Positions 4,745 through 62,546 of a stretch of 64,000 nucleotides of DNA are shown here, piece by piece. Every line of letters begins with the position of its first letter. The stretch's first letter is position 1. Source of the DNA: an uncultured Elusimicrobia bacterium (GTDB lineage: Bacteria; Elusimicrobiota; Elusimicrobia; UBA1565; UBA9628); NCBI GenBank assembly GCA_903881545.1, contig CAIRTQ010000036.1, forward strand, positions 3,772 to 67,771, written 5' to 3'. The translations under genes were made by a program, and so were the position numbers. The notes under the pieces were generated by a model. The model was not told where the DNA came from. It was given only the letters and a program-made list of their open reading frames with translations, and searched no databases.

Positions 4745-5962
4745 ATGATTTGCCATAATACCCTGCGCGCAAGACCGCGACAAGAATTTGGAGCTGATGC
4801 CTTCCCCGTGAAGATTCTCATCCTGACCTGGAAAGACCCCGGCGATCCGGAGGCCGGGGGCAATGAGGTGACCCTGCTGGAGCTTGCCCGCCGGCTGGCG
4901 GGCCAGGGCCACTCCGTCACCTGGCTCACGCGCCGCTTCCCGGGGGTTTCTTGCGAAGAGCGCCGGCAGGGGATCCGGTTCGTCAGGATCGGAGGCAAAT
5001 GGACGGTCTATTTCCAGGCTTATCGGTTCTATCGCCGACTTCAGGACAAGCCAGACGTCGTGGTAGACGTCATCAATGTCGCGGGCTGGCTCACGCCGCT
5101 CTACGTGCGGGAACCGATACTGGTGTGGGCCAATCAAATCGTGGACCAGGTCTTCTTCTGCCAATGGCCGTTCCTGCTGGCGCATCTAGGCCGGTACTGT
5201 GAGCGCTTCCAGTATCGCTGGTATAGGGATGTGCCGATGCTCTGCTATTCTCCGAGCGTGCGGAAGGATTTGGAGGATGTCGGCATCCCCGGCGGCAACA
5301 TCCTTCCGATCCCGCTGGGAGTCGACCACCAACGTTACTGGCCAGGAGCCAAATCTGGCACGCCTTTATTCGTCTGCGTGTCACGCTTGGCCAATTGGAA
5401 GCGCATCGACGCCTGCATCCGCGCCATGCCGGAGGTCTGCCGGAAGCATCCTACGGCCAAGCTGGTGGTCGTTGGGAAAGGCCCGGCAGGGGCGCGCCTG
5501 AAGCGGCTTGTTGCGCAATTGCGCTTGGCGGGGAGGATCGAGTTTGAGGATCAGAATGTTTTTTTCTACGAACCCTGTCCTGCCGACAGGAAGATACCCC
5601 TTCTGCAACAAAGCTGGGCCTTGCTGCAGATGTCTATCAAGGAAGGATGGGGCCTGACCATTTCCGAAGCCAACGCCTGCGGGACTCTGGCGATCGTCTC
5701 GGGGGCGCCGGGCTTGCGTGACAATGTGCGCCACATGCATACCGGCTTGGTCCTGGCGGAGCATCCGACGACTGAGGAGATCGCCCGGGCCATGTGTCTT
5801 ATCATCGAGAATCCCGCTCTGCGCGCGGAACTGGAAGGCCACGCCGTGCAAAGCGCCTCGCGGCTGGATTGGCGGCGTTCGGCTGAAACCTTGGAATCGT
5901 ATCTTTTCAGGGTGGCGCCCAGGGCGCGGCCCAATCTGGGCGCCGTGCCACGAAACCCATGA
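4745..5962 (+). CDS. Glycosyltransferase family 4 (group 1 GT)
   Basis: 405 aa with a GT-B/GT4-like C-terminal half (EGWGLTISEANACGT..). True start may be the in-frame GTG near 4808 (VKILILTW..). Confidence 0.8.
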   Translation: MICHNTLRARPRQEFGADAFPVKILILTWKDPGDPEAGGNEVTLLELARRLAGQGHSVTWLTRRFPGVSCEERRQGIRFVRIGGKWTVYFQAYRFYRRLQDKPDVVVDVINVAGWLTPLYVREPILVWANQIVDQVFFCQWPFLLAHLGRYCERFQYRWYRDVPMLCYSPSVRKDLEDVGIPGGNILPIPLGVDHQRYWPGAKSGTPLFVCVSRLANWKRIDACIRAMPEVCRKHPTAKLVVVGKGPAGARLKRLVAQLRLAGRIEFEDQNVFFYEPCPADRKIPLLQQSWALLQMSIKEGWGLTISEANACGTLAIVSGAPGLRDNVRHMHTGLVLAEHPTTEEIARAMCLIIENPALRAELEGHAVQSASRLDWRRSAETLESYLFRVAPRARPNLGAVPRNP

Positions 5963-7928
5963 GACGCCCGTTGAAAGAGGCGCTCTTGCCGCCCTCGCGA
6001 AGCGCCGAAATCTTGCGGCCTTGGGCGGCTTGGCACTGCTTTATGCCGTCATAAATTATATTTGGTTGCGCGGCGACGCCCCTATCCCGCTAGCCAGGGA
6101 CGCACTTTACGCCACCTACATGCTGCCCTATGTCCCATTTCTCAAAAAGTTATCCTGGTCGCTTCATGATTTGAACGCCGCGGCAGACATCGCCGCATTG
6201 TGGCGATGCGAACAACTCCATAGCCCGTATGGCCTCACATATAGTCTGCCGGCCGCGGCGGTCATGGCGCTTTCCAATAATTCTCTGCTGAAGACCGTGC
6301 TCTTCATGAACATCCCGTTCTTCATCCTCTTGCTGGCATCCGTCTATCTGCTGGGCCGGCGCATCGCCGGAAGCAATGCCGGCCTGGCTTCCGCCGTCCT
6401 GCTGGCGCTCTACCCTGCTGTCTTTGGGACCTCGCGGATGTATTGCCCGGATTTTGCGAGCATGGCGATCACCACGTTGAGCATATTGATGCTGCTCCAA
6501 TGCGAGGATTTCACCAAGACCGGATATTCCGTCCTGTACGGGGCGGCGGCGGCTTGGGGGATGCTGACCAAGACCGAGTCCGTAGCGTTCCTTGCGGGCC
6601 CCACGATTTTCATCGTTTCAAAGGCGCTGTATCCCTGGCTCCGGGAGCGGTCGCTGGCCGGCCGCTGGCGGCAGCCATGCAACATCCTGCTGGGCTTGGC
6701 GGCCTGGTACTTCCTGGCTGGCGGGCGCATGGAGCAGTTACTGGGCAAGATCGGCGGCCTGGCCGGAGAAGTCGCACCGCCCGGGATAAATTTCACAACA
6801 TACACGCTGGAACTATCCGAATGCATGTTAGGCGGCTTCTTCTCCCTGGCCTTCCTCTGGGGAGCGGCTGTTTTCTTCCGCAGAGCCGCAATCCCCAGGG
6901 ATACCAAGATCGTATGCGCTCTGTGGCTGCTCTTGCCCTGGTCCATCCTCGTGATGGCGCCCCATCGCGGGACGCACCTCTATGCTTTGATGTACCTGCC
7001 GGACATCGCACTGATGTCCGCGATAGGAATCGCGGGGCTTAGGCCGAACCTCCGGCGCGTCATGATGTCGGCCCTCCTTGCGGTCGGAGCGGTCCAATAT
7101 TACGACTTTTCCTTTACCGGAGGCCCGCATCTGGACCGGTTGCATTGGGATGGGCGCCCCGGGTGGGGCCCAAGTCTGCGCTATTTCCGAACGCACAATG
7201 ACCTCTGCCGCAGAATGGGCTCCGCCACCCAAGCATTCAGGGTTCTCGAAGCCATCGGGTCTTCGGTCGAAAAGAGAATGGCGGAATATCCAGGCCGGAT
7301 GGTATTGGTATGGGCCGCAAACCGTGAGCTTAACAACAAATATGGTCAGCCCCGTTGGAGCGTGCTCGAGGGATTCCGGCAGGCGCCGGGGTTCCTGGCG
7401 TCCCGAGATACTCCGCTCATTTTTGAGCCGCAGATCGTCTACCTCATGTCCGTGGTGGACTTCATGCTGGTCAGCGGGCGCAGCACGGATCCGGACCTCG
7501 CCAGCGCTTCGTGGTTCGATAAGAACCTGCTCCCGGAGAACATGGCGGATACCCCCCCTGAAGCGCGGGAATTCATTAAAAAATATGTCGCCGAGCTAGG
7601 CGGGTTCGATAAGCTGGGACCGCGCCACGTGGCTTCAATGAAACAGTACCACTGCGCCAGACTTTATGAGAACGACGATGATTATGTCGCTTTCTGTCAA
7701 AGACCCCCGGGACCTGTAGGCCGAGAGGAGCGGTCCCTTCTAAGCCGATTACCTATCGAACATTACATCGCGGAGTCCTATTTGGATCTGGCGCATCGTT
7801 ACGAAGAGCAATCCCGATGGATCAAAGCCGAGCAGGCTTATTTGCAAGCCCTGCGCATCGACCCCAAAGCGGTTTATATCCATTCTGATCTAGCCCGCCT
7901 CAACGAAAGGCGGGGCCATAGAGGATAG
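5958..7928 (+). CDS. Polytopic membrane glycosyltransferase (PMT/ArnT-like, GT39/GT83-type) with C-terminal TPR region; 5' end ambiguous or frameshifted
   Basis: About 10 TM helices, then a soluble domain ending in a TPR-like stretch (AEQAYLQALRIDP). Main frame has no ATG after the upstream stop. ATG at 5958 (ATGA overlap with the GT4 stop) is in the +1 frame for only about 12 codons. Confidence 0.6.
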   Translation, partial: HETPVERGALAALAKRRNLAALGGLALLYAVINYIWLRGDAPIPLARDALYATYMLPYVPFLKKLSWSLHDLNAAADIAALWRCEQLHSPYGLTYSLPAAAVMALSNNSLLKTVLFMNIPFFILLLASVYLLGRRIAGSNAGLASAVLLALYPAVFGTSRMYCPDFASMAITTLSILMLLQCEDFTKTGYSVLYGAAAAWGMLTKTESVAFLAGPTIFIVSKALYPWLRERSLAGRWRQPCNILLGLAAWYFLAGGRMEQLLGKIGGLAGEVAPPGINFTTYTLELSECMLGGFFSLAFLWGAAVFFRRAAIPRDTKIVCALWLLLPWSILVMAPHRGTHLYALMYLPDIALMSAIGIAGLRPNLRRVMMSALLAVGAVQYYDFSFTGGPHLDRLHWDGRPGWGPSLRYFRTHNDLCRRMGSATQAFRVLEAIGSSVEKRMAEYPGRMVLVWAANRELNNKYGQPRWSVLEGFRQAPGFLASRDTPLIFEPQIVYLMSVVDFMLVSGRSTDPDLASASWFDKNLLPENMADTPPEAREFIKKYVAELGGFDKLGPRHVASMKQYHCARLYENDDDYVAFCQRPPGPVGREERSLLSRLPIEHYIAESYLDLAHRYEEQSRWIKAEQAYLQALRIDPKAVYIHSDLARLNERRGHRG

Positions 7929-7936
7929 GGCCACCC

Positions 7937-8911
7937 TCAGGGCTTGAACCAATCTGCGAGTCTCATTACAAATCCTATAAGCACATCCGCAGCCAGCACT
8001 TCAGCGGATAGGACGAGCCGTTGCCATACCGACCATAGCGGGTGGCAGAGTCGGATGGGGCCGTCCAAATGAGACCAATACGCGATGTCCGCCCTCATCG
8101 GAAGCCGGTCTCCAGGCTTCGGCCATCGCGCCTCGTGCCAAGGCTTGGGATATCCGACACCGTGCATCATAAGCGTGGCACGGTACGGACGAAATCCCAT
8201 GCCTTCCTTGCCGAGCAGGATCATCGGATGCGGCGTGCTTTCCAAAGCGACGTTGAGCGCACATTGGTCTGGGAAGCAAAACGGAGATTTCCCATCCAAA
8301 CTGGGCCGGCTTTGCAGGCCGCCCAGCGCCGGAGCCAATAGCTCCTGTAGACGCTTCCATAGGCGCAGGAAGTCGATATGTCCCTTCGCGAACCCAATGA
8401 AGCCGGAGTTGACGTAGATGTCGTGGCGAGGATGGTACGGGAATCCTTGGGCGCCGAAATACTCCGTCCAGGTCTGGCGCCACGGGTGGTCCTTGGGTAT
8501 CGGGGAGGCGATATCCTCGCACAAAGCCAAGCCTTGCTGAACCCAATCTTCAAAGAGTTGCCACTGGGCACAGACGGTGATATCGGCGTCGAAATAGAAG
8601 ATGCGATCGGCCTCGATGGCGTGTTCTTCCCATAGGCTCAGGAGGAAATTCGGCTTATAATTGAAGAAAGAGGCAGTGGTGTCGCAAGTAACGAAGCGTA
8701 TCACACAGCCCGGCGCTACCGTAAAATCTTCATAGCGTCCCGCCGGCTTGCTTCCTTTTGCCCACCGGGGGATATCGCCTCGGCCTCCAGCCCAGATGGT
8801 GCCTCGGAATCCCGCGGCGTAGAGAGAGTTGGCGAGAGCCGCCAAGCCATGGTGAAAATCGCCCTCAAAGAGAGTACAGACGGCCGAATGATGGTCACTC
8901 TCCGGGCGCAT
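7937..8911 (-). CDS. Hypothetical nucleotide-diphospho-sugar (GT-A fold) transferase-like protein
   Basis: 324 aa with a DxD-like FYFDADIT motif. No close family recognised. Lies in the glycosylation cluster. Confidence 0.45.
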   Translation of the reverse strand: MRPESDHHSAVCTLFEGDFHHGLAALANSLYAAGFRGTIWAGGRGDIPRWAKGSKPAGRYEDFTVAPGCVIRFVTCDTTASFFNYKPNFLLSLWEEHAIEADRIFYFDADITVCAQWQLFEDWVQQGLALCEDIASPIPKDHPWRQTWTEYFGAQGFPYHPRHDIYVNSGFIGFAKGHIDFLRLWKRLQELLAPALGGLQSRPSLDGKSPFCFPDQCALNVALESTPHPMILLGKEGMGFRPYRATLMMHGVGYPKPWHEARWPKPGDRLPMRADIAYWSHLDGPIRLCHPLWSVWQRLVLSAEVLAADVLIGFVMRLADWFKP

Positions 8912-9683
8912 TGCTGCGTCCCATTATAGATTTTCCAGGCGGCTCCCCGAAAGCGTCATAACGCCCGCGCCAGAGATTCCATCGCAATCGCGCGAGCTCC
9001 GCCAAGGTGACGAACCAGTCCTTTCTCAGACAGAGCCGGCTCTCCTTACGGTCCGTCCAACGGATGGGAAGCTCTTTTGTCCGCAACCCCTGTCTTTGCG
9101 CGATGGTCAGGAGTTCCACGTCAAAGACCCAGCGTGAAAGACGACATCGTGACAGGAATGCCTGGCGAGCCCGCTGGTTGAAGCATTTGAAGCCGCACGC
9201 GGCATCGCTGATGCCGTCCAAATAGAACCTACGGATGAACCAATGATAGGCCCTTCCCAGGATACGGCGCAGCGGCGGCTGCCGCAAGCTGATTACGGCC
9301 CCCGGCAGGCGGCGCGATCCAAAAATGACGTCATGCGATTCGAGATAAGGCTCGAAGGCGGCGAATTCGCTCACGGGTGTCGCCGAATCCGCATCCAAAT
9401 AGAGGCACCATTGCCCGCGGGCCGCGCGCAGCCCTTCCAGGACAGCGCGGCCTTTTCCAAAATTCCTGGCCAGCCGCAGGACCCGCAAGGCGGGCAGAAT
9501 GGACTCCAGCTCTCCGGCTGCGGAAGCGGTGCGGTCCTGACTGCCATCGTCGACCAACAGTATCTCGAATTCGCGGCCCTTTCCTGAAAAATACTCCGAG
9601 ACGGTTCGCAGAGTCGCACAGATGATCTCCTCTTCATTGTAGGCGGGTATGATGATTGATAGATGCATACGAGATCGTGACAT
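8895..9683 (-). CDS. Glycosyltransferase family 2 (dolichyl-phosphate sugar transferase-like)
   Basis: MSRSRMHLSIIIPAYNEEE...LLVDDGSQD...YLDADSA motifs. The ORF-track N-terminal 100 aa extension is rejected as GC-rich read-through. Confidence 0.85.
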   Translation of the reverse strand: MSRSRMHLSIIIPAYNEEEIICATLRTVSEYFSGKGREFEILLVDDGSQDRTASAAGELESILPALRVLRLARNFGKGRAVLEGLRAARGQWCLYLDADSATPVSEFAAFEPYLESHDVIFGSRRLPGAVISLRQPPLRRILGRAYHWFIRRFYLDGISDAACGFKCFNQRARQAFLSRCRLSRWVFDVELLTIAQRQGLRTKELPIRWTDRKESRLCLRKDWFVTLAELARLRWNLWRGRYDAFGEPPGKSIMGRSNAPGE

Positions 9684-9697
9684 AGGGCAGCGAGATT

Positions 9698-10885
9698 CTA
9701 TCGAGCGCCTTCTCCGCGCGCTCCGGGAGAAATCAGCAGCATGGGGACCGCCACCGCCGCGCCGGCCGCGCCCAGCCAAAACGGCGCCTGCGGAGAGATG
9801 TGGGTCCACAGCCAGCCCGCGACGAGGCTGGCCGCCAAAGCCAGTCCGCCGGTGACTCCCTGAAAGACTCCCATGGCCGTGGCGCGGTTCTCCGGGCCAC
9901 AGCACTGCGCCACCGCGGCTTTCAGCGAGCCTTCGGTCAAGGCACCATAGAAGCCGTAGACCGCGAAGAGTATCCAATACCAACCCGGCCCCGTGGCCCG
10001 CGCAAAGCCAAGGTAGGTCGCGGCGAAGACCGCCAACCCCACGGCCACGGCACGCGTACGGCCGATACAGTCCGCCAGCGCGCCGGCGGGGGTTGCGGTC
10101 AAAGCGTAGACCGCGTTATAAAGGACATAAGCCAAAACCATCCGGCTTGGGCTTAAGCCCCCCTGCACGGCCTTGAGCAAAAGGAAGGCGTCGCTGCTGT
10201 TTCCCAGGGCGAATATGCCGTAAATGAGCAGGAGCCGCTTGAACTCCGGACTGAGCGGGGCCGCTGGGGCCGGCGCCGGCCCCAGCGGTGCCGGCTGAGC
10301 CGGGCGCTCTTCTACGAAGGCCGCCAACACCAGCACCCCCAGGACGGCCGGAATCGCGGCGATAAGGAAGATCGACCGATAGCCGAGGCCCCAAACCGAC
10401 ATGAGCGCGACGGTCACCAGCGGCCCGACGACCGCGCCGGCGGTGTCCAGGGCGCGATGGAAGCCGAAGGCTTTGCCCCAGTGCGCAGGCTCTGCCGAGG
10501 CGGTCAGAAGCGCGTCGCGCGCCGAGGTGCGCAGGCCCTTGCCCAGACGGTCCAGGACGCGGCAACCCAGGACGAACGGCCAAACCCCGGCCAAAGCCAG
10601 TAAGGGCTTGCTCAGCGCGGAGAGGCTGTAGCCCCATAGCACGAACGGTTTGCGGCGCCGCGCGCGGTCGGACCACCAACCGCCCGCGGCCTTGAGCAAG
10701 CTGGCCGTGGCCTCGGCCAAGCCCTCAATCAATCCCACCGCGGTCATGGGCGCGTGCAGGACCCCGGTCAGGAAAAGCGGCAGCACGGGATAGATCATCT
10801 CGGAGGATACGTCGGTCAGGCCGCTGACCACCCCCATGAATACGACGTTGCGGCCGATATCCTTTAAGAAGCGCGGACGCTGCAT
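9698..10885 (-). CDS. MFS transporter
   Basis: 12-TM pattern from MQRPRFLKDIGRNVVFMGVV. Start placed at the internal Met; the upstream part of the ORF overlaps rplU on the other strand. Confidence 0.7.
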   Translation of the reverse strand: MQRPRFLKDIGRNVVFMGVVSGLTDVSSEMIYPVLPLFLTGVLHAPMTAVGLIEGLAEATASLLKAAGGWWSDRARRRKPFVLWGYSLSALSKPLLALAGVWPFVLGCRVLDRLGKGLRTSARDALLTASAEPAHWGKAFGFHRALDTAGAVVGPLVTVALMSVWGLGYRSIFLIAAIPAVLGVLVLAAFVEERPAQPAPLGPAPAPAAPLSPEFKRLLLIYGIFALGNSSDAFLLLKAVQGGLSPSRMVLAYVLYNAVYALTATPAGALADCIGRTRAVAVGLAVFAATYLGFARATGPGWYWILFAVYGFYGALTEGSLKAAVAQCCGPENRATAMGVFQGVTGGLALAASLVAGWLWTHISPQAPFWLGAAGAAVAVPMLLISPGARGEGAR

Positions 10886-10954
10886 AGGGCTTCTTCGGAT
10901 GGTATCAAAATCGCTCTTGATAGGGAACCGCCGATTTGATATCCTGTCTTCGTT

Positions 10955-11266
10955 ATGTACGCTATAATAGAAACAGGCGGTAGGCAGTTCTGGGTGGCTC
11001 CCGGCGAGACCATCCGCGTGGAGAAGCTTGAGGTGGAAGCCGGCAAAGAGCTGACTTTCAAGGCGCTCTGGGCGGCGGGCGATGCCGCGGAGGGCAAGGA
11101 ACCCGCGACCTCCCGCGCGGCTGAGGTCACGGTCGAAGTGGTCAAGCAGACCCGCGGCCCCAAGATCATCGTCTTTAAACGGCGGAGCAAGAAGGCCTAC
11201 CGAAAGACCAAGGGCCATCGCCAGAACTACACCGATCTCCGCATCAAGACCATTTCCATCAACTAA
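10955..11266 (+). CDS. rplU: 50S ribosomal protein L21
   Basis: [14 protein letters not shown]... canonical L21. Confidence 0.95.
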
Positions 11267-11556: not shown

Positions 11557-12885
11557 GTGGAGTTCATCGACAAAGTCCGTCTTTTCATCACGGCGGGCAA
11601 CGGGGGCAACGGTTGCCTCTCCTTCCACCGCGAGAAATTCATCGAGTTCGGCGGGCCTGACGGCGGCGACGGCGGCCGGGGAGGCTCCGTCTACCTCGAA
11701 GCCTCCCCTCGCCTGACCACGCTCCTGGAACTCGCCCGCAAGCCGCACATCCGCGGCATCGACGGCTGCGCCGGAAAGGGCAAGGGCAAGACCGGGGAAT
11801 CCGCGGCGGAAACGGTCGTCTTCGTACCCGCGGGCACCATGGTCTACCGCGACGGGCTCCTGCTGGCTGATCTCCTGGAGCCAGGGCAACGGATACTGGT
11901 CGCCGATGGCGGCCGGGGCGGCCGCGGCAACCTTTCCTTCAAGAGCCGCCGGGTGATCACCCCGCGGCTTTGCGAACGCGGCGAGCCGGGGGAAGATGTC
12001 GAGATCATGACCGAGCTCAAACTCCTGGCCGACGTGGGCTTGGTGGGCTTTCCCAACGCCGGCAAGTCGAGCCTCCTGGCGCGCATCTCCAACGCCCGGC
12101 CCAAGGTGGCCGCTTATCCCTTTACCACTTTGACCCCGAACCTGGGCGTCGTCGAATACAAGTCCACGAGCTTCGTGGCCGCCGACATCCCGGGCCTCAT
12201 CGAGGGCGCCCACTCCGGTCGGGGCTTGGGCACGGAATTCCTCCGGCACATCGAACGTACGCGCGTCCTGGTACACCTCGTCGACCCCGAGGGCTTCGGC
12301 GGCCGCGGCCCCGTGCCCGGCATAAAAGACATCGAGCATGAGCTCAAGTCCTTCTCGCCCAAGCTCGCAGCCAAACCGCGCCTGCTGGCCGTCAATAAGC
12401 TCGACCTGCCCGGCGGACGCGAGGTCCTGCGCCAGGTCAAGGCCCGCTACCCGCGCCGGACCTTCGGGATATCCGCCGCCACCGGCGAAGGCATCGCGGC
12501 CCTCCTGGACCGCGTCATCCGGGAACTCTCGCGACTGCCCCCGGGACCCGCGACCACGCCCAACGCCCAGGCCGGTAGCCGCGCCCTGCGCATGGACATC
12601 GGCTTCCGGGCCCGGCCTTTGGGCGGGGGGCGTTTCGAGCTCACGGGCCGCTTCGTGCTGCGGGCCGCGGCCATGCTGGAGGCGACGCTGCCCGAGGCGG
12701 TGGAACGATTTCAGGCGGCCCTCAAGCGCATCGGCGTGGATAAGGCACTTAAGCGTCTCGGCATCCGGGAAGGCGACATGGTGCGCTGCGGCGACTTCGA
12801 ATTCGAATGGACGGATGCCGCGCGCCGGCCGCTGCCGCGCCTGCAGGGAGACCGCCGCACCCGTATCGGCATCGGGAAGAAATGA
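11557..12885 (+). CDS. obg: GTPase Obg/CgtA
   Basis: Glycine-rich Obg fold N-terminus ([11 protein letters not shown]) and [12 protein letters not shown]1 motif. Sits in the conserved rplU-rpmA-obg order. Confidence 0.95.
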
Positions 12886-13763
12886 CCGCCCCGGACGCCT
12901 ATGCCGCGCGGCTTGCCGACCCCTCTGACCCTGACGCCGCCCAGGCCTTCTGCATGCGCCTGGCCGCGGAGCGCCGCGCCTTCGGCTGGACGCGGCGACT
13001 GTCCCCCCGGCGCTTATGGCCGCACCTCGCGGCTCTCTACGCTTTCGCGCGCATCACCCGCGACTTGGTCGAAGATCCGGCCCACGAGAGCTCGCGGCCG
13101 CAGCGCCTGACGGACTGGCGCCGCCAACTGCAAGGCCTGGGGCGGGAAGCTCCGGAGCACCCGGTCTTCACGGCCTTGGGGCGCGCGGTGCGCGAATTCG
13201 ACCTGCCGGTCAGCCTACTCGACGACCTGGTGGCGGCCGGCCTGCAGGAAACGGGCCAGACCCGCTACGCGACCTACAACGAACTCCTGGCCCTTTGCCA
13301 CCGCGCTGCCGACCCGCTAGGCCGGCTCGTCCTCATGCTGCACGGCTGTCGCGACGAGGGCGTGCTGCGCTACTCCGACGCGCTGTGCTCGGGGCTGCTG
13401 CAGACCCATTTTTGGCGGGACCTGGCCCTGGACCTCGCGCGCGACCGCATCTACATCCCCGAAGAGGATTTCCGGGCCTTCGGCTACACCGAGGCGGACC
13501 TGCGCATGGGCGTGTGCAACGAGAAGTTCCGCGAACTCATGCGCTTCGAGGTCAACCGGACGCGCGCCCTCTTCGAGCAGGCCCGGCCCCTGCCGGAGAA
13601 GCTGCGCAAGCCCTTCGCCTGGCAGGTGACGCTGGCCTGGTACGGCGGCCGGGAGACCCTGCGGCAGATACGCAAAATGGGCTTCGACACCATCACGCAC
13701 CGCCCGGTCCTGGGCCGCTGGGATTGGCTGCCCCTGGCGCTGCGGACCTTATTGCGGCCATGA
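12882..13763 (+). CDS. Squalene/phytoene synthase family protein (HpnC-like)
   Basis: Isoprenoid synthase fold (YAFARITRDLVED...). ATGA overlap with the obg stop. Paired with a second paralogue, as in hopanoid hpnCD clusters. Confidence 0.7.
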   Translation: MTAPDAYAARLADPSDPDAAQAFCMRLAAERRAFGWTRRLSPRRLWPHLAALYAFARITRDLVEDPAHESSRPQRLTDWRRQLQGLGREAPEHPVFTALGRAVREFDLPVSLLDDLVAAGLQETGQTRYATYNELLALCHRAADPLGRLVLMLHGCRDEGVLRYSDALCSGLLQTHFWRDLALDLARDRIYIPEEDFRAFGYTEADLRMGVCNEKFRELMRFEVNRTRALFEQARPLPEKLRKPFAWQVTLAWYGGRETLRQIRKMGFDTITHRPVLGRWDWLPLALRTLLRP

Positions 13764-14587
13764 GCGGCGAAAGCCGGTCCAATTTCGCTCCGGCGTTCCT
13801 CTTTCTGCCCCGCCCCAAGCGCGAGGCGCTGCGTGCGGTCTACGCCTACTGCCGACTCATCGACGACATCGTCGACTCCGGCGCCTGGCCCGAGGCCGAG
13901 GCGCGGCGGCAACTGGATTTCTGGCGCGAGGAGGTGGAGCGCCTCTTCGCCGGCCGGCCCACGCACGCCGTGGCCCAGAGCCTCTTGCCGCATGTAGCGG
14001 CCTTCCGCCTGCCCAAGGAGGCTTTCCTGGAGATGATCCGGGGCTGCTCCCTGGACCTGGAGGGGACACGCTACCGGACACCCGAGGAATTGGAGAGCTA
14101 TATGCGCGGCGTGGCCTCCTCCGTGGGCCTGCTCGCCGTCGAGATCTTCGGCTACCGGTCCACCCCTCCCGAACGGATCCGCGAGTTCGCAACACTCTTC
14201 GGCTACGCCTTCCAATTGACCAACATCATCCGTGATGTGGGCGCCGACCTGGAGCTGGGACGCATCTACCTGCCGGCCAGCGACATGGAGGCGGCGGGCT
14301 ATACGATGAAATCCCTGATGCTGCGCGAGCACAACGCGGCTTTCGGCAGCCTCATGGCCGCGCTCTACCGCCGGGCCAAGACCTACTACCAGAGGGCGCG
14401 CAGCCTGGTGGATTTCCGCGATCGCCCCGGGCTCGTCGCGGCCGAGGTCATGGCCCATGTCTACGAAGGGCTCCTGGAGGAGATCCGCGAGAACCACTTC
14501 CGGGTCCTGTTCCACCGCAGCAGCCTGTCCTCCTGGCGCAAGACGGTCCTCGCCGGCAAGGGCTGGCTGTATTGCCATGGGCTCTGA
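13760..14587 (+). CDS. Squalene/phytoene synthase family protein (HpnD/presqualene diphosphate synthase-like)
   Basis: Starts MSGESRS. Asp-rich YCRLIDDIVD and second DxxxD-like motif. ATGA overlap with the upstream gene. Confidence 0.75.
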   Translation: MSGESRSNFAPAFLFLPRPKREALRAVYAYCRLIDDIVDSGAWPEAEARRQLDFWREEVERLFAGRPTHAVAQSLLPHVAAFRLPKEAFLEMIRGCSLDLEGTRYRTPEELESYMRGVASSVGLLAVEIFGYRSTPPERIREFATLFGYAFQLTNIIRDVGADLELGRIYLPASDMEAAGYTMKSLMLREHNAAFGSLMAALYRRAKTYYQRARSLVDFRDRPGLVAAEVMAHVYEGLLEEIRENHFRVLFHRSSLSSWRKTVLAGKGWLYCHGL

Positions 14588-14621: not shown

Positions 14622-15188
14622 ATGCTCAAATCCGACAAATGGATCCGCCGGATGTGCCTGGAGCGCCAGATGATCGTCCCCTTCGCGGAGCGGACCGAGG
14701 GGAACGGTCGCATCTCCTTCGGCCTCTCTTCCTACGGCTACGACATCCGGCTTTCCGACGAGTACAAGGTCTTCGCCGGCGCCCCTGGAGCGGTCTTGGA
14801 CCCCAAGGCTTTCGACCGCGCCGCCTGCGCCGAGCACAAAGGCCCCTTCTGCCTCATCCCGCCGAACTCCTTCGCCCTGGCGCGCTCCCTGGAGCTTTTT
14901 TGCATCCCGCGCAGCGTCCTCTGCCTCTGCCTAGGCAAGAGCACCTACGCGCGCTGCGGAATCATCGTCAACGTGACTCCCCTGGAGCCGGGCTGGACCG
15001 GGCACCTGACCATGGAGATTTCCAACACCGCGCCAGTCCCGGCCAAGGTCTACTCGGGAGAGGGCATCGCCCAACTGGTTTTTCTTGAAGCTGATGAGGC
15101 CTGCGAGACGAGCTATGCCGACCGCCGCGGGCTGTATCAGGCCCAGGAAGGCATCGTCCTGCCTCGGGTGCGGCCAGAAGGACCGTGA
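14622..15188 (+). CDS. dcd: dCTP deaminase
   Basis: 188 aa with [13 protein letters not shown] and [11 protein letters not shown] motifs typical of Dcd/dUTPase-fold proteins. Confidence 0.9.
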
Positions 15189-16477
15189 CGGCAGTGGGAC
15201 TCGTGAGACGCCCAGCCTTGATTAAAGAATTCCACAGGGAACTCACCCTGCTTGGCGCCATCCTGCTTTGCCCCGTCTTTGCGGTGGCCCAGCTGACGGC
15301 GCGTACAAGCCCCTGGAGCTACTCCGCCGGCGCCGAAGCCAAAGAGACATACGACGGCAATGTCTTCCTCCAGGACCACGGCAACCTGGCCCGTCGGCAT
15401 TCAATGGTCACAGCCGTCTCGCCCGGCGTCAGCGGGGCTTATCAAGAAAGCCCAGCCTTCAAAGCCGCCCTGTCCTATCTTCTGGATGCGTCGTTCTACC
15501 ATGACGCGCCATCGGAGAGCAATCTCACCCATCGGGGCGCACTCAATTTCAGCGGGCAGGCCGCGGATACGACTTGGGAAGCGCTCAACCGGGCGGTCTG
15601 GATCGACGGGAGCCGGCAGGGCCCGACGTTCACATCCGGCGGGGATGTGCCTGCCATCGGCGGCATCCCGCTACGGGATCGGCGCGCGGCGCTGGTCTGT
15701 TTCAACAGCTTCAAGGCGACCCGGACCTTGGGAAGCTGGTTCGTACGTCCGGTGTTCAATTCGTATGTGCATGACTTCCGCACCGAACAGCATGCCCAGA
15801 CCGGCGCTTACGTGGGCTACGAGAATTATATGAGCCGCAACGAGGTCAGCGGCGGGGCGGATGTGGGATTCGAGGCGGCGCAGCGGCTCTGGGTGGTCTT
15901 GGGCTACCGCTACGGCCACCAGCACCAAGGCCGGCTGTTGGGGAAATCCAGCCCGTACAGCAGCGATTACCAGCGACCCCTGGCCGGAGTCGAGGGCAGT
16001 CCGGTGGACTGGGCGAAGTTCAATCTCTTGATCGGACCGGACATCCGGGCCTTCGCGCCCGGCACGCAGGCGGGCTTCGACCGGAATAAATTATTGCTTT
16101 ACTTCGACGGCTCCCTGACCCTCACGCCAAGCCGGCGAGATACGTTGGTCCTGACCGTCCGCCGCTACGAACAGCCGGCCTTCTCCAGCCAGAGCGTCTA
16201 TGAGGACATCACCTACGATTTTTCCTGGCAGAGGAGATTCAACGAGCGCCTGACCGCCGGCGCGGGATTCAACGCCCACGGCGGCACCTGGCAAGCGCCC
16301 GCCCGGCGGAATGATTGGATCCTGACTCCCAGCGGGATGGCGCGATGGTCGTTTAACAAGAAGCTGGCCGGCGAGGTGAGCTTCCTCTACGACAAGGCCG
16401 AAAGCCTGATTCGGAACACCCAGGGCCGGGAATACACGAGGCCCCTGCTTTCGGCCAGCATGAAGTATTCCTTCTGA
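15185..16477 (+). CDS. Outer-membrane beta-barrel protein, unknown function
   Basis: Signal-peptide-like N-terminus with alternating amphipathic strands. Ends in the ..SMKYSF C-terminal Phe, the OMP sorting signal. Confidence 0.6.
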
Positions 16478-16577
16478 CGCCGGCCCAGGAGACCAGACCG
16501 TATAACCCTTCGTCACAACTTGAACCGCGCCATGACGCCTGCGCTGGTGGACCGCCACATGGCCGAAGCTCCAGCCC

Positions 16578-16630
16578 AGCGCCGCGCGCCGGAGAGAATG
16601 CGGAGCTGCTCCTTAATGACGGCGAATGAA
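16578..16630. repeat. Diverged ~50-bp copy of an internal crotonase-gene segment (left flank of the rSAM insert)
   Basis: Matches gcgcgccNgagagNatgcggaNctgctccttNatgacggc at 18295-18360. Reverse-strand translation gives AVIKEQLRILSGA versus AVIKEQFRILSGA in the crotonase gene. Confidence 0.6.
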
Positions 16631-16650
16631 AAAACGGTCTTTATTTGTCG

Positions 16651-18088
16651 CTAGACCTTCAGATTGAAGATCGCTTTATAGGGATCGACTATGCACCTGA
16701 TGAGGAAGCCCATATAATCAAATATCCTCGTTGGGCGGTAGCGCAAAACTCTATAGAACCCTGATATGACCCGGCCTACCAGGGTATTCCCCGACATAAG
16801 AAAAAAGTAATTCTTTGAGTCGATATTCGCGATGCGATGCATCCTGATCATTTCCGCCTTCGGGAATCGATCGGTCTCAAAAAACACGGGCGGCTTCGCC
16901 GACCAGGTCCCGTGCCTGCAATCGACTTCTTGGAAGAAACGGCCGTTGGTCTGGACCCAATCATACAGCGGAGTTCCGGCAAATGGCATGGCTATATACC
17001 ATCGCGCGGGGATATCCAGTTTCCTAATAAATCCCATAGACCGGTAGACGGAATCCTTGTCCGTCCCAATGAGTCCGATGATCATAAAAGCTTCTACGGG
17101 AATCCCATGTCTCTTGATTAGCTTGACGGCCTTTTCAATGTCATCCAAGCTCTCGCCTTTCCGCACATAGTCAAAGGTTGCTGGGTCGCCGTTCTCCACT
17201 CCGATCGCCACCCGACAACAGCCGGCATCTCTCAATAGGGACACCAATTCTTCATCGATCCTATCGGCGCGGATACCGTTCCCTAATGCGAACTGGATAT
17301 TGAATCCTCCGGCGATGATTCGTCTTAGTATCCCCTTCGCCCTCTCGAGGTCCAGCGTGAAATTGTCGTCGACAATGGAAAAATTGCGGCATCCGGACTT
17401 CTCAACAACGAATCTTATTTCCGCAATGACATTCTCTACACTTCTTCCCCTCCACTTCTTGTCCCAGACAATCCCGTTCATACAGAAAACACAGCTGTAA
17501 GGGCAGCCTCGACTCGATAAGATCGGATAATAATAGTGTTTGGCTTTTTGGATCGCCACATCCGGGTAAGGGAGGACATCGACGATCAGCAACGGCCGGG
17601 GCGGATTGAGCCTGATATTCCCACCGTCTCGATAGATGAGCCCAGCGATATCTTTCAATTGCTTCCTGCCCGATAATGCTTCCAACAAATCCGCTGTTGT
17701 CTCTTCCCCTTCCCCGTAGATGGCATGGTCAAAGACAGGATTATCCTGCAGGAAGGCTTCCTTATGAAGGGCAACAGAGCTTCCACCTGCAATATATACG
17801 GCATTACACTTCTTTCTCAACACCGATGCGATTTCCAGCGCGCTGTCATGGCTCAATTCCATGATTGTGATGCCGATGATGTCGGGCTTCCAAGCTATGC
17901 AATCCTGGTAATGCGCCTTAGCCAGACCAGAACCCTTCAACATCCTGTGCAGCCCAAGAGGCTTGGTGCCTATATTAGCTTCGAAATTCCGTATCAGTAC
18001 ATCATGTCCCTTCCCTTTGAGAAACGACGCGATATACGCTAGGCCGAGATTGTAATCGTCTAGTGGATTGATTAACAATACGCGCATT
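16651..18088 (-). CDS. B12-binding-domain radical SAM protein (class B rSAM)
   Basis: N-terminal cobalamin-binding Rossmann fold (MRVLLINPLDDY...). CPYSCVFC radical-SAM CxxxCxxC motif. Markedly lower GC than its neighbours. Confidence 0.8.
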
Positions 18089-18166
18089 TGTTTGTAGATA
18101 ACCCCACACTTGGCCCTTCGCCGCGCCCAGATCTTCCGTCCCTTTGCGCTCCTTCCCGCTTCAGGC

Positions 18167-18946
18167 CTAATCGCCGCGGAACGCCGGGCGGCGCTTTTCC
18201 AGGAAGGCCCGCAGACCCTCAGCGTAGTCGTGGCTCTCGAAGACCGTGCGGCGCAGTCCCTCGACCCGCTCAAATGTGTCGGGGCTGATGGGGTGCGCGC
18301 CAGAGAGGATGCGGAACTGCTCCTTGATGACGGCCACGGAAAGCGGCGAATGCGCCGCGATCTTGCGGGCCAGTCCTAAAGCGAAGCCCTCCAGCTCCTC
18401 GGCCGGAACCAGATGGTTGAGGATGCCGAACTCCAAGGCGCGCGGGGCTTCCACCGGCTCAGCCGTAAAGAACATCTCTTTGGCGCGGTTGAGGCCGAGG
18501 TGGTTGATGAAATGGAGTATGCCCGAGGCGTTGTACGGGATGCCCACCTTGACCGGCGTGATGGCGAAAGCCGCGGTGGCGTCGCCCACGATCATGTCGC
18601 AGGTTAACGCCAGGTCGCAGGCCCCGCCCCAAACGCCGCCGCGCACCATGGCGATGACCGGGCCGGGATAGGACTCGATGGCGCGCAGGGCGATCTCCAA
18701 GGGGCTGTCGTAGGAGAGCGGATCGTGCTGCGACTTTTCGATCTCCTCCAGATCAAGGCCCGCGGACCACACCTTCGCGCCCGGCGCCGCGGCCAGGATT
18801 ACCACAGGCACATGGCTAGCCTGTAGCTGCGCCAGGGCCGCAGTCAGCTCTTCAAGGAGCTTGGCGCCCAAGGCGTTGCGCCGGTCCGGATTGGAAAAGG
18901 TGATGCGGCCGATCTTATCTTCGGCCGAGACTTGGACGAATGCCAT
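18167..18946 (-). CDS. Enoyl-CoA hydratase/isomerase (crotonase) family protein
   Basis: 259 aa with crotonase-fold motifs (ITFSNPDRRNALG... AAPGAKVWSAGLDL). Confidence 0.85.
   Translation of the reverse strand: MAFVQVSAEDKIGRITFSNPDRRNALGAKLLEELTAALAQLQASHVPVVILAAAPGAKVWSAGLDLEEIEKSQHDPLSYDSPLEIALRAIESYPGPVIAMVRGGVWGGACDLALTCDMIVGDATAAFAITPVKVGIPYNASGILHFINHLGLNRAKEMFFTAEPVEAPRALEFGILNHLVPAEELEGFALGLARKIAAHSPLSVAVIKEQFRILSGAHPISPDTFERVEGLRRTVFESHDYAEGLRAFLEKRRPAFRGD
18295..18360. repeat. Right copy of the repeat flanking the rSAM gene (inside the crotonase gene)
   Basis: See 16578-16630. The right copy carries an extra 13 nt relative to the left copy. Confidence 0.6.
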
Positions 18947-18955
18947 GCCTGCCTC

Positions 18956-21274
18956 CTACTTCTTGGCCCGGATGGCCGCCAGCACCTTCTCCGGTGTGAA
19001 CGGCGGGTTGAACAGCCGCACCCCCACCGCGTTGTAGATCGCGTTGGCGATGGCCGGCTGGGGCCCGTTGATTCCGATCTCGGAAACCGACTTGGCCCCG
19101 AACGGCCCGTCCGCCTCGTAAGTCGGAATCAAGATCGTCTTAAACGGCGGCGCGTCCGCGGCCGAGAAGATCTTGTAGTTCCGGAACGAAGCATTGAGCA
19201 TGGCCCCCGAGGGGCTAAACCGCATCTCCTCCGTCAGAGCGTAGGAGAGGCCGTTCAAGACCGCGCCGTCGTTCTGGCCTTCCGCCAGCGCCGGATTGAT
19301 CGCGGTGCCGCAATCCACCGTGGAGACATAGTCCAGGATCGTCACCTGGCCCGTCTCCGTGTCCACCTCCACCTCGGCGAAGTGCGCCGCGAACGGCGGT
19401 GGCGAGCTCTGCGCGATGTGCGAGGCCACGCCCATGATCTGGTGCTGGTCGTGGTAGTAGAACGCGGTGTTGGCCACTTCCGCGAGGGCGCAGCTGCGCC
19501 CCGAGCGGCCCACGGCCTTGCCGTCCTTGAGGTCGATGTCCTCGGGCTTCTCATCCAGGATCTTGGCCGCGATCTTGAGGATCTGCTCCCGGGCGTGCAG
19601 GGCGGCCTTCTTGACCGCGTTGCCAGAAATGAAGGTGGTCGAGGAGGCGTAGGCTCCCACGTCGAAAGGCGTCAGGTCGGTGTCCGAGGACAGCACGATC
19701 ATGTCCTTGGCGGTCACGCCCAGGACCTCGGCCGCGATCTGGGCCAGCACCGTGTCGGAGCCCGTGCCCAGATCGGTGGCGCCCATGTGAAGGTTGAAGG
19801 AACCATCCTCGTTCATCTTGAGGAAGGCGGCGGCCATGTCCACCTCCGGGATGCCGGAGCCCTGCATCAGGCAGGCGCAACCCACGCCCCGGCGCTTGAC
19901 GCCCGTCTGCTTGGCGTTGCGCTTCTTCTTCTCTTCCCAGCGGAAGGCGGCCAGGCCTTGGGAGATGCACTCGTCCATGCCGCAGGAGCCGATCTTCTGC
20001 TCGATGCCCTCGCGGCCCTCGCCCATGGCCTTGAAGACCGGGGAGCCTTCGCCGGAGCGGATATAGTTCTTCTTGCGAAACTCGATAGGGTCGAGCCCCA
20101 GCTTCTCGGCCATCATGTCCATCTGGCTTTCCCATGCGAAGAAGCCCTGGGTGGCCCCGAAGCCGCGGTAGGCGCCGCCCACCGGGAGGTTGGTGTAGAC
20201 CGAGCGGCCGATGAATCGGCTATTCTTGGCCTGATACATGGGCAGGGTGTGGGAGCCCGAGCACATCATCACAGTGAGGCTGTGCGCGCCGTAGGCGCCG
20301 TTGTCGCAGTAGACTTCCATGTGCGCATCGGTGATGGTGCCGTCCTTCTTGGCGCCGGTCTTGAGCCGGAGGACGAAGGGATGGCGCGTGCGCGAGGAGA
20401 CGAAGGTCTCCTTGCGGGAGAACTCGATCTTGACCGGCCGCTTGGTCGCCAAGGTCAGGGCCGCGCAGATGGGTTCGAGCAGGACCTCCTGCTTGGAGCC
20501 GAAGCCTCCTCCGATGCGCGGCTTGATGACCCGGATGGACTTCAGCGGCAGCTGCAGGACGCGTGCCGTGATGCGCCGCGCGTGGAAGGGGACCTGGGTC
20601 GAAGTGCGTATGACCAGCCGGCCGTCGCCGTCGAAATAGGTGACGGTGACATGGGGCTCCAGCGCGCAGTGCTGGGCCCACTGGGTCTTATACCACTGGT
20701 CTACCACCACTTCGGCCTCGGAGAACCACTCCGACTCCTTGACCTCAAAGTCGAACTTGGCGCAAATATTGTGCTGGGCGTCCGGGATGTTCTTGGAGTC
20801 GGCCTCGTCGTGGATGACGGGCGCGCCCTCCTGGATGGCCTTCATGGTGTCGAAGACCGCGGGCAGGACTTCGTAGTCCACCTGGATCTTGGACAGGGCC
20901 TCCTCGGCAGCCTCGGGCGTCTCGGCGGCAACGGCCGCAATACGGTCGCCCACATAGCGGGCCTTCTCGCTGAGGACCAAGGTGTCGTAGGGCGAGGGCT
21001 CGGGGTAGCCCTGCCCGGCCGTGGTGTGGCGCACGCGGGGCAGGTCTTCGTGGGTCAGCACCGCCAGCACTCCCGGCACCTTCTTGGCCGCCCGGGTGTC
21101 GATGCTCTTGATGCGGGCGTGCGCGTGGGGGCTGAACAGTATCCGACCGGTGAGCAGGCCCCGAATGTCCAGATCGTCGGTGAACTGGGCCGTGCCGCAG
21201 GCTAGGGCCAGCGCGTCGATCTTCTCGACGCGGTGATTGACGACCGTGAATTCCCGCTTATCCGAGACGCTCAT
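18956..21274 (-). CDS. Xanthine dehydrogenase / aldehyde oxidase family molybdopterin-binding large subunit
   Basis: About 770 aa from MSVSDKREF. GGGFGSK motif of XDH-type enzymes rather than the CODH VAYRCSFR loop. ATGA overlap with the 2Fe-2S subunit. Confidence 0.85.
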   Translation of the reverse strand: MSVSDKREFTVVNHRVEKIDALALACGTAQFTDDLDIRGLLTGRILFSPHAHARIKSIDTRAAKKVPGVLAVLTHEDLPRVRHTTAGQGYPEPSPYDTLVLSEKARYVGDRIAAVAAETPEAAEEALSKIQVDYEVLPAVFDTMKAIQEGAPVIHDEADSKNIPDAQHNICAKFDFEVKESEWFSEAEVVVDQWYKTQWAQHCALEPHVTVTYFDGDGRLVIRTSTQVPFHARRITARVLQLPLKSIRVIKPRIGGGFGSKQEVLLEPICAALTLATKRPVKIEFSRKETFVSSRTRHPFVLRLKTGAKKDGTITDAHMEVYCDNGAYGAHSLTVMMCSGSHTLPMYQAKNSRFIGRSVYTNLPVGGAYRGFGATQGFFAWESQMDMMAEKLGLDPIEFRKKNYIRSGEGSPVFKAMGEGREGIEQKIGSCGMDECISQGLAAFRWEEKKKRNAKQTGVKRRGVGCACLMQGSGIPEVDMAAAFLKMNEDGSFNLHMGATDLGTGSDTVLAQIAAEVLGVTAKDMIVLSSDTDLTPFDVGAYASSTTFISGNAVKKAALHAREQILKIAAKILDEKPEDIDLKDGKAVGRSGRSCALAEVANTAFYYHDQHQIMGVASHIAQSSPPPFAAHFAEVEVDTETGQVTILDYVSTVDCGTAINPALAEGQNDGAVLNGLSYALTEEMRFSPSGAMLNASFRNYKIFSAADAPPFKTILIPTYEADGPFGAKSVSEIGINGPQPAIANAIYNAVGVRLFNPPFTPEKVLAAIRAKK

Positions 21275-21798
21275 TTCTTTGCTCCCTGGGGCTTGCGCAG
21301 CCGCCGGGCGGCCAGCAGCGCGCCCTCGACCTGCTTGACGTAACCCGTGCAGCGGCAGAGGTTGCCGTCCAAAGCCCGGCGCACCGCGCCCTCGTCGGGG
21401 TCCGGGTCCTCGTCCAAAAGGGCCTTGGTGACCAGTACCATGCCCGGGATGCAGAAGCCGCACTGCACCGCGCCCACGTCGGCGAAGGCCTGCTGGATGG
21501 GATGGGGCTGGTTCGGCGTGCCCAGGCCCTCGATGGTCGTCACGCGCCGGCCGTGCGCCTGGGCCGCGAACATCATGCAGGAAAGCGCGGGCTTGTCGTC
21601 CAAGAGGATCGTGCAGGTGCCGCAGTCGCCGCCGTCGCAGCCCTTCTTGACGCCCTTATAGCCCTCGCGCCGCAGGGCGTCCAGGAGATATTCGCCGGGG
21701 GCCACCTTCATGGCCACCGCCTTGCCGTTGATATTGACCAGGATATCGAGCTTGCCGTCCACTACCCGCAGCGTGCCGCGTCCTTTCTTTTGGGGCAT
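21271..21798 (-). CDS. [2Fe-2S] iron-sulfur subunit of the molybdenum hydroxylase
   Basis: CDGGDCGTC and CGFCIPG / CRCTGY cysteine motifs of XdhA/CoxS-type subunits. Confidence 0.9.
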   Translation of the reverse strand: MPQKKGRGTLRVVDGKLDILVNINGKAVAMKVAPGEYLLDALRREGYKGVKKGCDGGDCGTCTILLDDKPALSCMMFAAQAHGRRVTTIEGLGTPNQPHPIQQAFADVGAVQCGFCIPGMVLVTKALLDEDPDPDEGAVRRALDGNLCRCTGYVKQVEGALLAARRLRKPQGAKK

Positions 21799-39419: not shown

Positions 39420-41021
39420 TTAGAACGCTAAAGCCAGTTGTAACGCGACGGCTGCGGAAGACGGCACTTTTTGCGACTTGCTTCCGCTGTTCCCGCTATT
39501 GACCTGAGTTTGTTCCGAGCTGATGGCGCCGCCCACATCAACCCTGAGGTGCGCGAGGTTGACGCCGAAACCGGCGGTATAGGCCAGCTTGGAGGAGGCA
39601 TTAGCGATGTTCTGCATGATGCCGGCGCGCAGAGGGATGTTGATCCAGGACCGGTTGAAGACATTGACTTCGGTTCCCACGCCGAACATGCGGGAATGAT
39701 ATCCCGGCAACGGGGTGAGGTTGTTGGTCAGGTCAATGTCCGCCGCGATATTCCAGAAATGCAGGGGCGTGAGAGCGACGCCCATGCGGACTTGGCCGTT
39801 TTCGGAATAATGCGCGGACTCCCCGTTGGTGATGGCGATCGCGGGTTGGTCGAACTTGGGGTCATTGAGGTTGCGGCCGACGACGCCGATCCGGGGCCTA
39901 CAGGGCAGGGAGGTGAAGAGCTTGTCCGCCTGCCATAAGGCGCCCAGGTCGATGCCGGGCTGGAGGCTGGTGGCGATGTTGTCCCGGAAGTGGCTCAGGG
40001 TGGAGTTATTGTTGTTGAGGATGTCGTAGCGGACGTAGCTGACCGTACCCACGATGGCCTTGAGGTTGCCGCCGACATAAAGCCCCGGGAGGAAGAAAGA
40101 GTGGCCGTAGCTCATGGCTATGTCCGTGAAGGAGCCGCCCTTAAGGGTCAGGTTGGAGGTGTTGTCTTTGTAGACATTGGTCGCGGTCTTGCCTTGGATG
40201 ATCGGCGCGACAGCTGCCGCGTTTTGGCTGATTGTTGTGGCGGCATCTAAGATTTGTGCAGTGGTCATGCCGTTATATGCCGCTATATTTACTAGGGCAT
40301 CACCGATATTACCTGAAGTGATGCCGCCAGCAGACAGCGCTCCGCCGGTAAGGGCGTCGAGCGAAGCGTATTGACTTCCCAGAGCAGTCTGAATGGTAGT
40401 AGCCGCAACCGTATTCGCGGACGTAGCTGCTCCGGTGCAGGAACTGCCACCGCATAAAGTCGTACTCGCGTTTGTGAAAGTGACGCCGCTCAATCCCGAG
40501 CCGCTGCCCAGTCCGATGTTCTGTAAATCCACATATGGCGCGGCGCCGACCTGGGTGAAATTATTAACCGAGAAGGCGAACTTTCCGATCTTGAAGTTGG
40601 CGCCGCCGTTCACATCGGCCAAGGCGCCCTTCCCAGGATTGTTAAGATCTGCGATGGCGGCCAAACCCTTATAAAAGGCTCCGATTTGGGTGACATTCAT
40701 GGCGCCGGCGGCACCGCTACCCTGTGAGGTTTGGATCGCTTTGAACTGCGAGGACAGATCCATCAAGGTGTTGGCATCCTTCAGGACGCCGCCCGTGAAA
40801 TCGGCCTTGGCGCCGACCGGAATCGCAATCTCCCATTTCACATTATCCAACTCCTCAGCCAAGCCCGCCGGGTTCCAGTGCTGCGCCAGACTCCCTTCAG
40901 CCATACCCACAAATGCGCCGCCCATGCCTAGGGGGCGCGGCCCCAGGATCGACCAAGCGTCGGCATAGGACAAAGACGGCAGGCCCAGGCACACGACAAG
41001 AGTCAGCGTTTTATAAAGCAT
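39420..41021 (-). CDS. FadL/TodX-like outer-membrane beta-barrel transporter
   Basis: Signal peptide. N-terminal GMGGAFVGMAEGSLAQHWNPAGLA hatch-domain motif of the FadL family. C-terminal ...LALAF. Lower GC than the flanks. Confidence 0.65.
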   Translation of the reverse strand: MLYKTLTLVVCLGLPSLSYADAWSILGPRPLGMGGAFVGMAEGSLAQHWNPAGLAEELDNVKWEIAIPVGAKADFTGGVLKDANTLMDLSSQFKAIQTSQGSGAAGAMNVTQIGAFYKGLAAIADLNNPGKGALADVNGGANFKIGKFAFSVNNFTQVGAAPYVDLQNIGLGSGSGLSGVTFTNASTTLCGGSSCTGAATSANTVAATTIQTALGSQYASLDALTGGALSAGGITSGNIGDALVNIAAYNGMTTAQILDAATTISQNAAAVAPIIQGKTATNVYKDNTSNLTLKGGSFTDIAMSYGHSFFLPGLYVGGNLKAIVGTVSYVRYDILNNNNSTLSHFRDNIATSLQPGIDLGALWQADKLFTSLPCRPRIGVVGRNLNDPKFDQPAIAITNGESAHYSENGQVRMGVALTPLHFWNIAADIDLTNNLTPLPGYHSRMFGVGTEVNVFNRSWINIPLRAGIMQNIANASSKLAYTAGFGVNLAHLRVDVGGAISSEQTQVNSGNSGSKSQKVPSSAAVALQLALAF

Positions 41022-61966: not shown

Positions 61967-61999
61967 TTTTTTGGCGGAAAGCCAGCATTTCCTGCGGCC

Positions 62000-62516: not shown

Positions 62517-62546
62517 CGCCCGAGAAAATTCCCGCGGCGGCGGGCT

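Follow-up and report, generated by a model that had tools for sequence, protein, structure and literature searches.

A crotonase-derived 48-nt repeat next to a B12-binding radical-SAM gene as a probable rearrangement scar in a variable envelope locus of an uncultured Elusimicrobia bacterium

In the 64,000-nt stretch of Elusimicrobia DNA analysed here (hereafter the window), a low-GC gene for a B12-binding radical-SAM (rSAM) protein lies between two imperfect direct copies of a 48-nt crotonase sequence. The ectopic copy (copy A) is very probably the scar of a rearrangement in a variable envelope locus, and this is common to the two main routes considered below. Comparison with related strains reveals a mosaic, in which the beginning of a PAP2 phosphatase gene has been replaced by a 1.5-kb unit consisting of a leader, the rSAM gene and a short tail; leader and rSAM are shared with a sibling strain. 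Our explanation as a whole, namely that copy A marks a breakpoint and is not a target-site duplication, and that the rSAM unit replaced the PAP2 start with templated filler at the join, is put forward with moderate confidence.

Taken overall, the locus exemplifies ordinary plasticity of the genome in a lineage of uncultivated Elusimicrobiota. The biology appears to be that of a plastic surface or envelope locus in which an old, horizontally acquired rSAM gene is present, PAP2 has been destroyed and recombination has left a 48-nt scar. Its novelty is modest and consists in the recoverable states before and after the event and in the glycan-associated clade to which the rSAM belongs. The locus is also a worked example of how repeats around a low-GC gene can mimic the footprint of an insertion, while comparison with siblings reveals a relic mosaic produced by illegitimate recombination.

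The direct repeat and its source

A preliminary description of the region had reported imperfect direct repeats of about 50 bp around the rSAM gene, and these withstand a proper alignment. In a repeat search, positions 16584-16631 (copy A) and 18295-18342 (copy B), both on the minus strand, gave the single standout direct repeat, with 41 matches in 48 positions and no gap. When the 173-nt spacer at 16478-16650 was searched against the whole window by blastn-short, the pair had an E value of 3.5e-8, and the runner-up match had 0.002. The edges of the repeat are sharp, with identity in the flanks at random level (6/29 and 4/24). Local alignment of the remaining flanks found neither a second block of similarity nor a longer or degenerate repeat (score 17, against a shuffle mean of 16.8).

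As the preliminary description had also stated, one copy is coding and the other non-coding yet translatable, and the repeat derives from the crotonase gene. Copy B, which has the source-type sequence, lies within the crotonase ORF (nt 605-652 of the gene) and encodes AVIKEQFRILSGA. Copy A is an ectopic non-coding fragment corresponding to the same nt 605-652, and one of its frames still reads AVIKEQLRILSGA. It matches the resident crotonase gene at 41/48 positions, the orthologues of the V-type and U-type relatives (described below) and of contig L084 at 39-41/48, and distant orthologues at 31-34/48. Since the orthologues of this clade are matched better than distant ones, the source of copy A appears to be the window's own clade. 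Comparison with at least 90 loci resolves the source only to this clade level, and within the clade the resident crotonase gene is probably the source. An exact-pattern scan of JGI metagenomes gave 0 matches to an A-type (Leu) crotonase allele.

Both junctions of the arrangement are reproduced by contigs from other samples and assemblers. The crotonase-rSAM junction is present in contigs L001 and L002, and the rSAM-copy A-porin junction in L093 and L094, both 100% identical; a 6087-bp ENA contig gives further support. An assembly chimera or artefact was ruled out, because independent contigs carry both junctions. The decay in place of a second crotonase paralogue was likewise rejected, since the relatives have a single copy, with PAP2 at that position.

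The crotonase and radical-SAM genes

The crotonase-fold gene (18167-18946, minus strand; PF00378, E 8e-48) is intact. Its product passes the NF008506 equivalog cut-off, with 368.8 bits against 257, and is a predicted methylmalonyl-CoA decarboxylase of the crotonase fold. The gene closes a conserved block of the order amidohydrolase-ThiS-FAD-FeS-Mo-crotonase and is colinear with its relatives through the stop codon, including the 128 nt after copy B (18167-18294). The preliminary description had read the repeats as the footprint of an insertion or cassette that duplicated its target. Because the crotonase gene is intact and relative-like to its stop codon, more than inserted DNA lies between the two copies, and that reading is upheld only in part.

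The rSAM gene (16651-18087, minus strand) begins 79 nt past the end of the crotonase gene. It had been recognised correctly in the preliminary description apart from its upper coordinate, placed at 18088, which proved to be one base too far. The 478-aa product contains the domains PF02310 (E 9e-13) and PF04055 (E 4e-22) and a CxxxCxxC motif at C195/C199/C202. This combination of a cobalamin-binding domain with a CxxxCxxC radical-SAM core is that of the class B radical-SAM definition. The composition of the gene is AT-rich and foreign, as had been noted: its GC content is 0.496, against 0.65 for the crotonase gene and 0.656 for the Mo subunit gene (63-66% for the neighbours overall), and its GC3 is 0.60, against 0.79-0.88 for the neighbours. 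On the fine scale the low-GC block spans about 16632-18105, and it is the lowest-GC kilobase of the window, the window's extreme end excepted.

In having an N-terminal B12-binding domain and a radical-SAM core, the protein resembles the class B enzymes BchE, HpnJ, PhpK, AprD4, TsrM and TokK. It differs from them in lying far under every curated cut-off and in belonging to a clade associated with glycan clusters. Among 31 NCBIfam matches none reached its curated family cut-off, the best being BchE with 134 bits against 481, and a sequence search of the PDB gave, as solved structures, only distant class-B relatives (E 1e-17 or weaker). Since both searches yielded superfamily-level matches only, a specific functional assignment was rejected. 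The label "methyltransferase-type" that had been attached to the gene is not retained, the protein falling short of the curated family threshold for a class B radical-SAM methyltransferase.

The nearest homologues outside the rSAM's own lineage have 43% identity or less and are located in glycosyltransferase (GT), Wzy, GLF and AftD clusters, on contigs whose GC content is 35-40%. This fits an ancestral origin of the gene from a low-GC donor, as well as a role in surface-glycan chemistry. The protein appears to be a member of an uncharacterised clade of B12-binding radical-SAM proteins tied to surface-glycan clusters, to which the present locus draws attention.

Comparison with related strains

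A search with the crotonase among species-representative genomes assigns the window to Elusimicrobiota. Sibling strains were reached through cluster members at 90% identity or more. In the closest relatives, whose crotonase is about 95% identical, a PAP2 phosphatase gene comes next after the crotonase gene, ahead of a porin-like gene on the opposite strand. The U-type contigs L095, L096 and L083 have this crotonase-PAP2-porin order, and the V-type contigs L098 and L099 have the same crotonase-PAP2 start as the U-type. PAP2 of the relatives is 321 aa long, and its start overlaps the crotonase stop; an intact PAP2 gene appears to be the ancestral condition. That orthologous loci without the rSAM gene should exist, as the preliminary description had supposed, was borne out, since the gene is absent at this position in every relative examined.

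The porin-like gene next to PAP2 in the relatives has an orthologue in the window, the porin-like beta-barrel gene p430 (15185-16477, plus strand), which is convergent with the rSAM gene. Window positions 16544 to 15216, which cover the final 32 nt of PAP2, the spacer between the genes and the porin gene itself, are 92% identical in nucleotides to L095 11707-13034. Homologues of p430 have PF10082, and there is a weak match to TIGR03016. The dCTP deaminase gene dcd (14622-15188, plus strand; PF22769), which is syntenic with contigs L004 and L084, is the conserved gene that bounds the variable region on its far side. Synteny breaks off only a few bases from the crotonase stop and returns at dcd and two squalene/phytoene-synthase genes, and sequence divergence climbs towards the locus boundary. 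In L084 and L004 this interval contains a 7.5-kb cluster of PMT_2/MFS/GT2/GT2/epimerase/nucleotidyltransferase genes, and in the window it contains the rSAM gene and p430 only. In its conserved flanks (crotonase; dcd-SQS) and in the different gene sets found in each relative, the locus is like variable loci of the O-antigen or capsule type. It is unlike the whole-cluster homologous replacement of such loci in consisting of two genes and an illegitimate join.

The rSAM gene was found at another position in a sibling strain. A V-type 9448-bp contig (ENA ERZ1426829), which was compared by gene map and proteins and which shares its sample with a window-type contig, has the order crotonase-PAP2-porin(-)-rSAM(+)-p653(-)-dcd(-). 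The sibling rSAM gene is therefore on the other side of the porin gene relative to the window, where rSAM and p653 are missing between porin and dcd. The sibling protein is 93% identical to residues 76-478 of the window protein, a degree of divergence comparable to that seen in the native genes on either side. In the window a GC-rich 48-nt leader, U48 (18109-18156, minus strand), lies upstream of rSAM. The leader is also upstream of rSAM in the sibling strain, where it adjoins the porin gene: positions 1-48 of L097, the V-type porin contig, match it at 44/48 (E 1e-13). The spacing of the leader agrees as well, 69 nt and 62 nt making 131 nt, against 132 nt implied by the map of the 9448-bp contig.

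Leader and rSAM thus appear to travel as one unit, placed differently in sibling strains. Since a 93% identical rSAM gene with the same leader lies elsewhere in the sibling, the gene seems to be an older resident of the variable envelope locus that was relocated rather than newly arrived, and the former view of a fresh capture is given up. The preliminary description had further placed the gene at the tail of the molybdoenzyme operon. Since the unit occupies different positions among sibling strains, this adjacency is best regarded as incidental; the link is absent in the sibling and hence positional only. The locus warns against taking the rSAM gene as a member of the molybdoenzyme operon.

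The spacer mosaic and its junctions

The spacer 16478-16650, between the rSAM gene and the porin gene, is a mosaic, explained over its whole length, of the 19-nt rSAM tail, the crotonase fragment, a PAP2 relic (16513-16583) and the native spacer up to the porin stop. The AT-rich 19-nt tail at the 3' side of the rSAM unit (16632-16650, minus strand) was delimited by fine-scale GC and by sequence, which places the first junction within the spacer, J1, at 16631/16632. Two parts of the PAP2 relic can be distinguished, both on the minus strand. Part 1 (16548-16583) corresponds to PAP2 nt 822-857, matching L095 11594-11629 at 35/36 positions and also L096 and L097, and part 2 (16513-16544), which aligns with L095 11707-11738, is the last 32 nt of the gene including its stop. 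Between the two parts there is an internal deletion of 77 nt, where 3 nt are left (16545-16547).

The first 821 nt of PAP2 are replaced in the window by the 1.5-kb rSAM unit. The true target was the PAP2 gene downstream of crotonase, not the crotonase gene, to which the preliminary description had assigned the insertion: in L095, L096 and L097, PAP2 nt 822 sits 942 nt from crotonase nt 652. No other PAP2 orthologue was detected within the window by tblastn, and relocation of the gene elsewhere in the window was rejected on this ground.

The proximal junction J0 (18157-18166, minus strand) was read by comparing the window, L095 and L097 with one another. Two nucleotides after the crotonase stop are shared with the relatives; these are followed by 8 orphan nt (CTGAAGCG) and then by the leader. 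At J1 the rSAM tail meets crotonase nt 605, with at most an ambiguous T-run in common. At J2 (16583/16584) crotonase nt 652 meets PAP2 nt 822 bluntly, with no microhomology visible at this join of copy A and PAP2.

Possible routes to the present arrangement

The mechanism that we propose would start from the state kept in the closest relatives, i.e., crotonase, PAP2 phosphatase and a convergent porin-like gene. A 1.5-kb unit, composed of the 48-nt GC-rich leader, the low-GC rSAM gene and the 19-nt tail, would have displaced the first 821 nt of PAP2. The illegitimate join would have left the eight orphan bases at the proximal junction and, at the distal one, a patch of 48 nt that reproduces crotonase nt 605-652, a segment located about 0.94 kb upstream of that breakpoint. 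We infer that this patch was templated filler, acquired by template switching or short-patch capture in repair or replication. The leftover PAP2 tail would later have decayed, shedding 77 nt. This route, in which one illegitimate insertion-deletion places filler at each of the two junctions, is favoured tentatively, at a little short of an even chance. The direction and the source of the move bear on the number of events, which is one if the unit came from a sibling strain and two if the ancestor was V-like; a sibling-like ancestor needs a second deletion that removes the old rSAM copy and p653. Copy A may have been joined to the rSAM tail already before the move.

Short ectopic patches of this kind are known as SPDIR, a bacterial mutation class in which patches of 3 to about 100 bp are derived from an intragenomic or extragenomic source (bioRxiv 10.1101/2023.11.22.568220). 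The patch in the window is comparable in that it has 48 nt, a length within this range, and is of the same-genome type, from 0.94 kb away and in the same orientation. SPDIR events are microindels bounded by microhomologies, at which the patches normally anneal, whereas the window locus has a 1.5-kb insertion, a 0.8-kb deletion and a blunt join of copy A to PAP2. The event is thus of kilobase scale, beyond a microindel, and lacks microhomology at J2, so that microhomology is not found at both junctions; these observations speak against the filler route, as does the fact that a tandem duplication with deletions yields an identical end product. If the filler reading is true, a natural case is added to a mutation class known mostly from laboratory assays in Acinetobacter. 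It is possible, though rather doubtful, that the locus represents a natural and datable templated-filler rearrangement, produced by template switching or in an SPDIR-like manner, in which a leader-rSAM-tail unit without a recombinase moved inside the variable envelope locus and left a 48-nt patch, with the pre-event state still recoverable through sibling strains.

The alternative route by duplication begins with a V-like ancestor of the order crotonase-PAP2-porin-leader-rSAM-p653-dcd. The stretch that runs from crotonase nt 605 through the rSAM tail would have been tandemly duplicated, bringing the rSAM tail next to crotonase nt 605. Later, one deletion would have taken away PAP2 and porin of the first copy, a second one crotonase nt 653 through PAP2 nt 821 in the second copy, and a third one rSAM of the second copy together with p653, with copy A as the leftover. 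This explains why the gene orders of the window and the sibling strain look circularly permuted, and it accounts for the direct orientation of copy A, its crotonase origin and its place just past the rSAM tail, and for the missing rSAM and p653 between porin and dcd. However, four illegitimate events are required, the 8 orphan nt at J0 still need an explanation, and the intermediate arrangement was seen in none of the contigs examined. Furthermore, a tandem duplication of about 3.9 kb would normally be lost first through collapse by homologous recombination. We therefore consider this route unlikely, while giving it serious weight.

That copy A has been retained for a function is very improbable. 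As part of the 3' UTR of the porin mRNA it could act antisense to the crotonase mRNA, since the plus strand of 16584-16631, 107 nt past the porin stop, is complementary to that mRNA at 41/48 positions; it could otherwise be a terminator or a protein-binding site. However, the spacer has no terminator-like site and no Rfam match except a distant tRNA, and no stable structure is predicted. In addition, 6 of the 48 positions of copy A carry changes unique to it, as neutral drift predicts, and the element is absent in the U-type relatives that were read across the interval.

The least probable explanation, to which we give hardly any credence, is a foreign rSAM cassette that was inserted in or beside the crotonase gene and duplicated a target of about 50 bp, either as a target-site duplication or by integron-like capture. 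What the window shares with transposon target-site duplications and integron cassettes is that a single low-GC gene of foreign composition, with very short flanks, lies between two direct repeats of the same orientation. However, the 128 nt of orthologous crotonase coding sequence and the sibling-shared leader also lie between the repeats, copy A is followed on its right by PAP2 nt 822 and not by crotonase nt 653, the flanks are not contiguous in the empty site, and the 48-nt repeats, being 85% identical (15% diverged), are far longer than known target-site duplications. Terminal inverted repeats were not found, there being only weak 14-22-nt GC-rich inverted matches, and folding of 16470-16660 on both strands gave no attC-like imperfect palindrome 3' of the rSAM gene (z-scores -0.03 and -1.1). 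The identified flanking genes in the window are all ordinary metabolic or envelope genes and include no transposase, integrase or other mobile-element gene. Target-site duplication is excluded on the combined ground of the native crotonase sequence between the repeats, the non-contiguous empty-site flanks, the long and diverged repeats, and the lack of inverted repeats and of an attC-like fold.

Age of the rearrangement

The JC distance between copies A and B is 0.16, which is comparable to the divergence at 4-fold sites from contig L083 (0.13-0.27). On this comparison the drift of copy A, about 13-15%, suggests that the event took place at roughly the time when the sibling strains split.

Loss of the PAP2 gene and the end of the crotonase gene

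A remnant of the PAP2 phosphatase gene is found at 16513-16583 of the window, and consists of the final ~145 nt of the gene from which 77 nt have been deleted internally. The closest relatives still have an intact copy, so this PAP2 copy has been lost in the window lineage. In the comparison with L083, a contig of the closest relative, identity is ~95% over the molybdoenzyme operon, only 85-89% over the final 300 nt of the crotonase gene (18183-18482), and collapses at the crotonase stop codon. Such a pattern would be expected beside an island swapped by recombination.

Sibling-strain gene and gene boundaries

For the B12-binding radical-SAM gene of the sibling strain, carried on a 9448-bp contig (ENA ERZ1426829), the called start is an internal Met, and the resulting 403-aa product has no B12-domain match as called. 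The spacing on this contig leaves room for a full-length gene, and a frameshift or stop may lie within the N-terminal B12 domain.

Mechanically defined ORFs were too long for two genes in the window. The 523-aa squalene/phytoene-synthase ORF (12882-14587) represents two adjoining genes of this type, at about 12882-13760 and 13760-14584, and the molybdoenzyme-subunit ORF at 18956-21463 has its start in orthologues near 21274, not 21463.

Other low-GC regions

A glycan or envelope gene cluster of lower GC (0.57-0.62) occupies 4745-11218 and encodes GT1/GT4, a PMT_2-like protein of 736 aa and GT2, as well as an MFS transporter and two unknowns. It is located on the far side of the block formed by the dCTP deaminase gene (dcd) and the squalene/phytoene-synthase genes, whereas the glycan cluster of relatives lies between crotonase and dcd. 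A TraF_2-like protein of 533 aa is encoded in a second low-GC patch (0.53-0.57) at 39420-42340, as is a protein of 385 aa that matches no Pfam family. At the window end (61892-64000), GC falls to 0.50-0.58 after a tRNA gene (61892-61963), and the low-GC part may be an element integrated at the tRNA.
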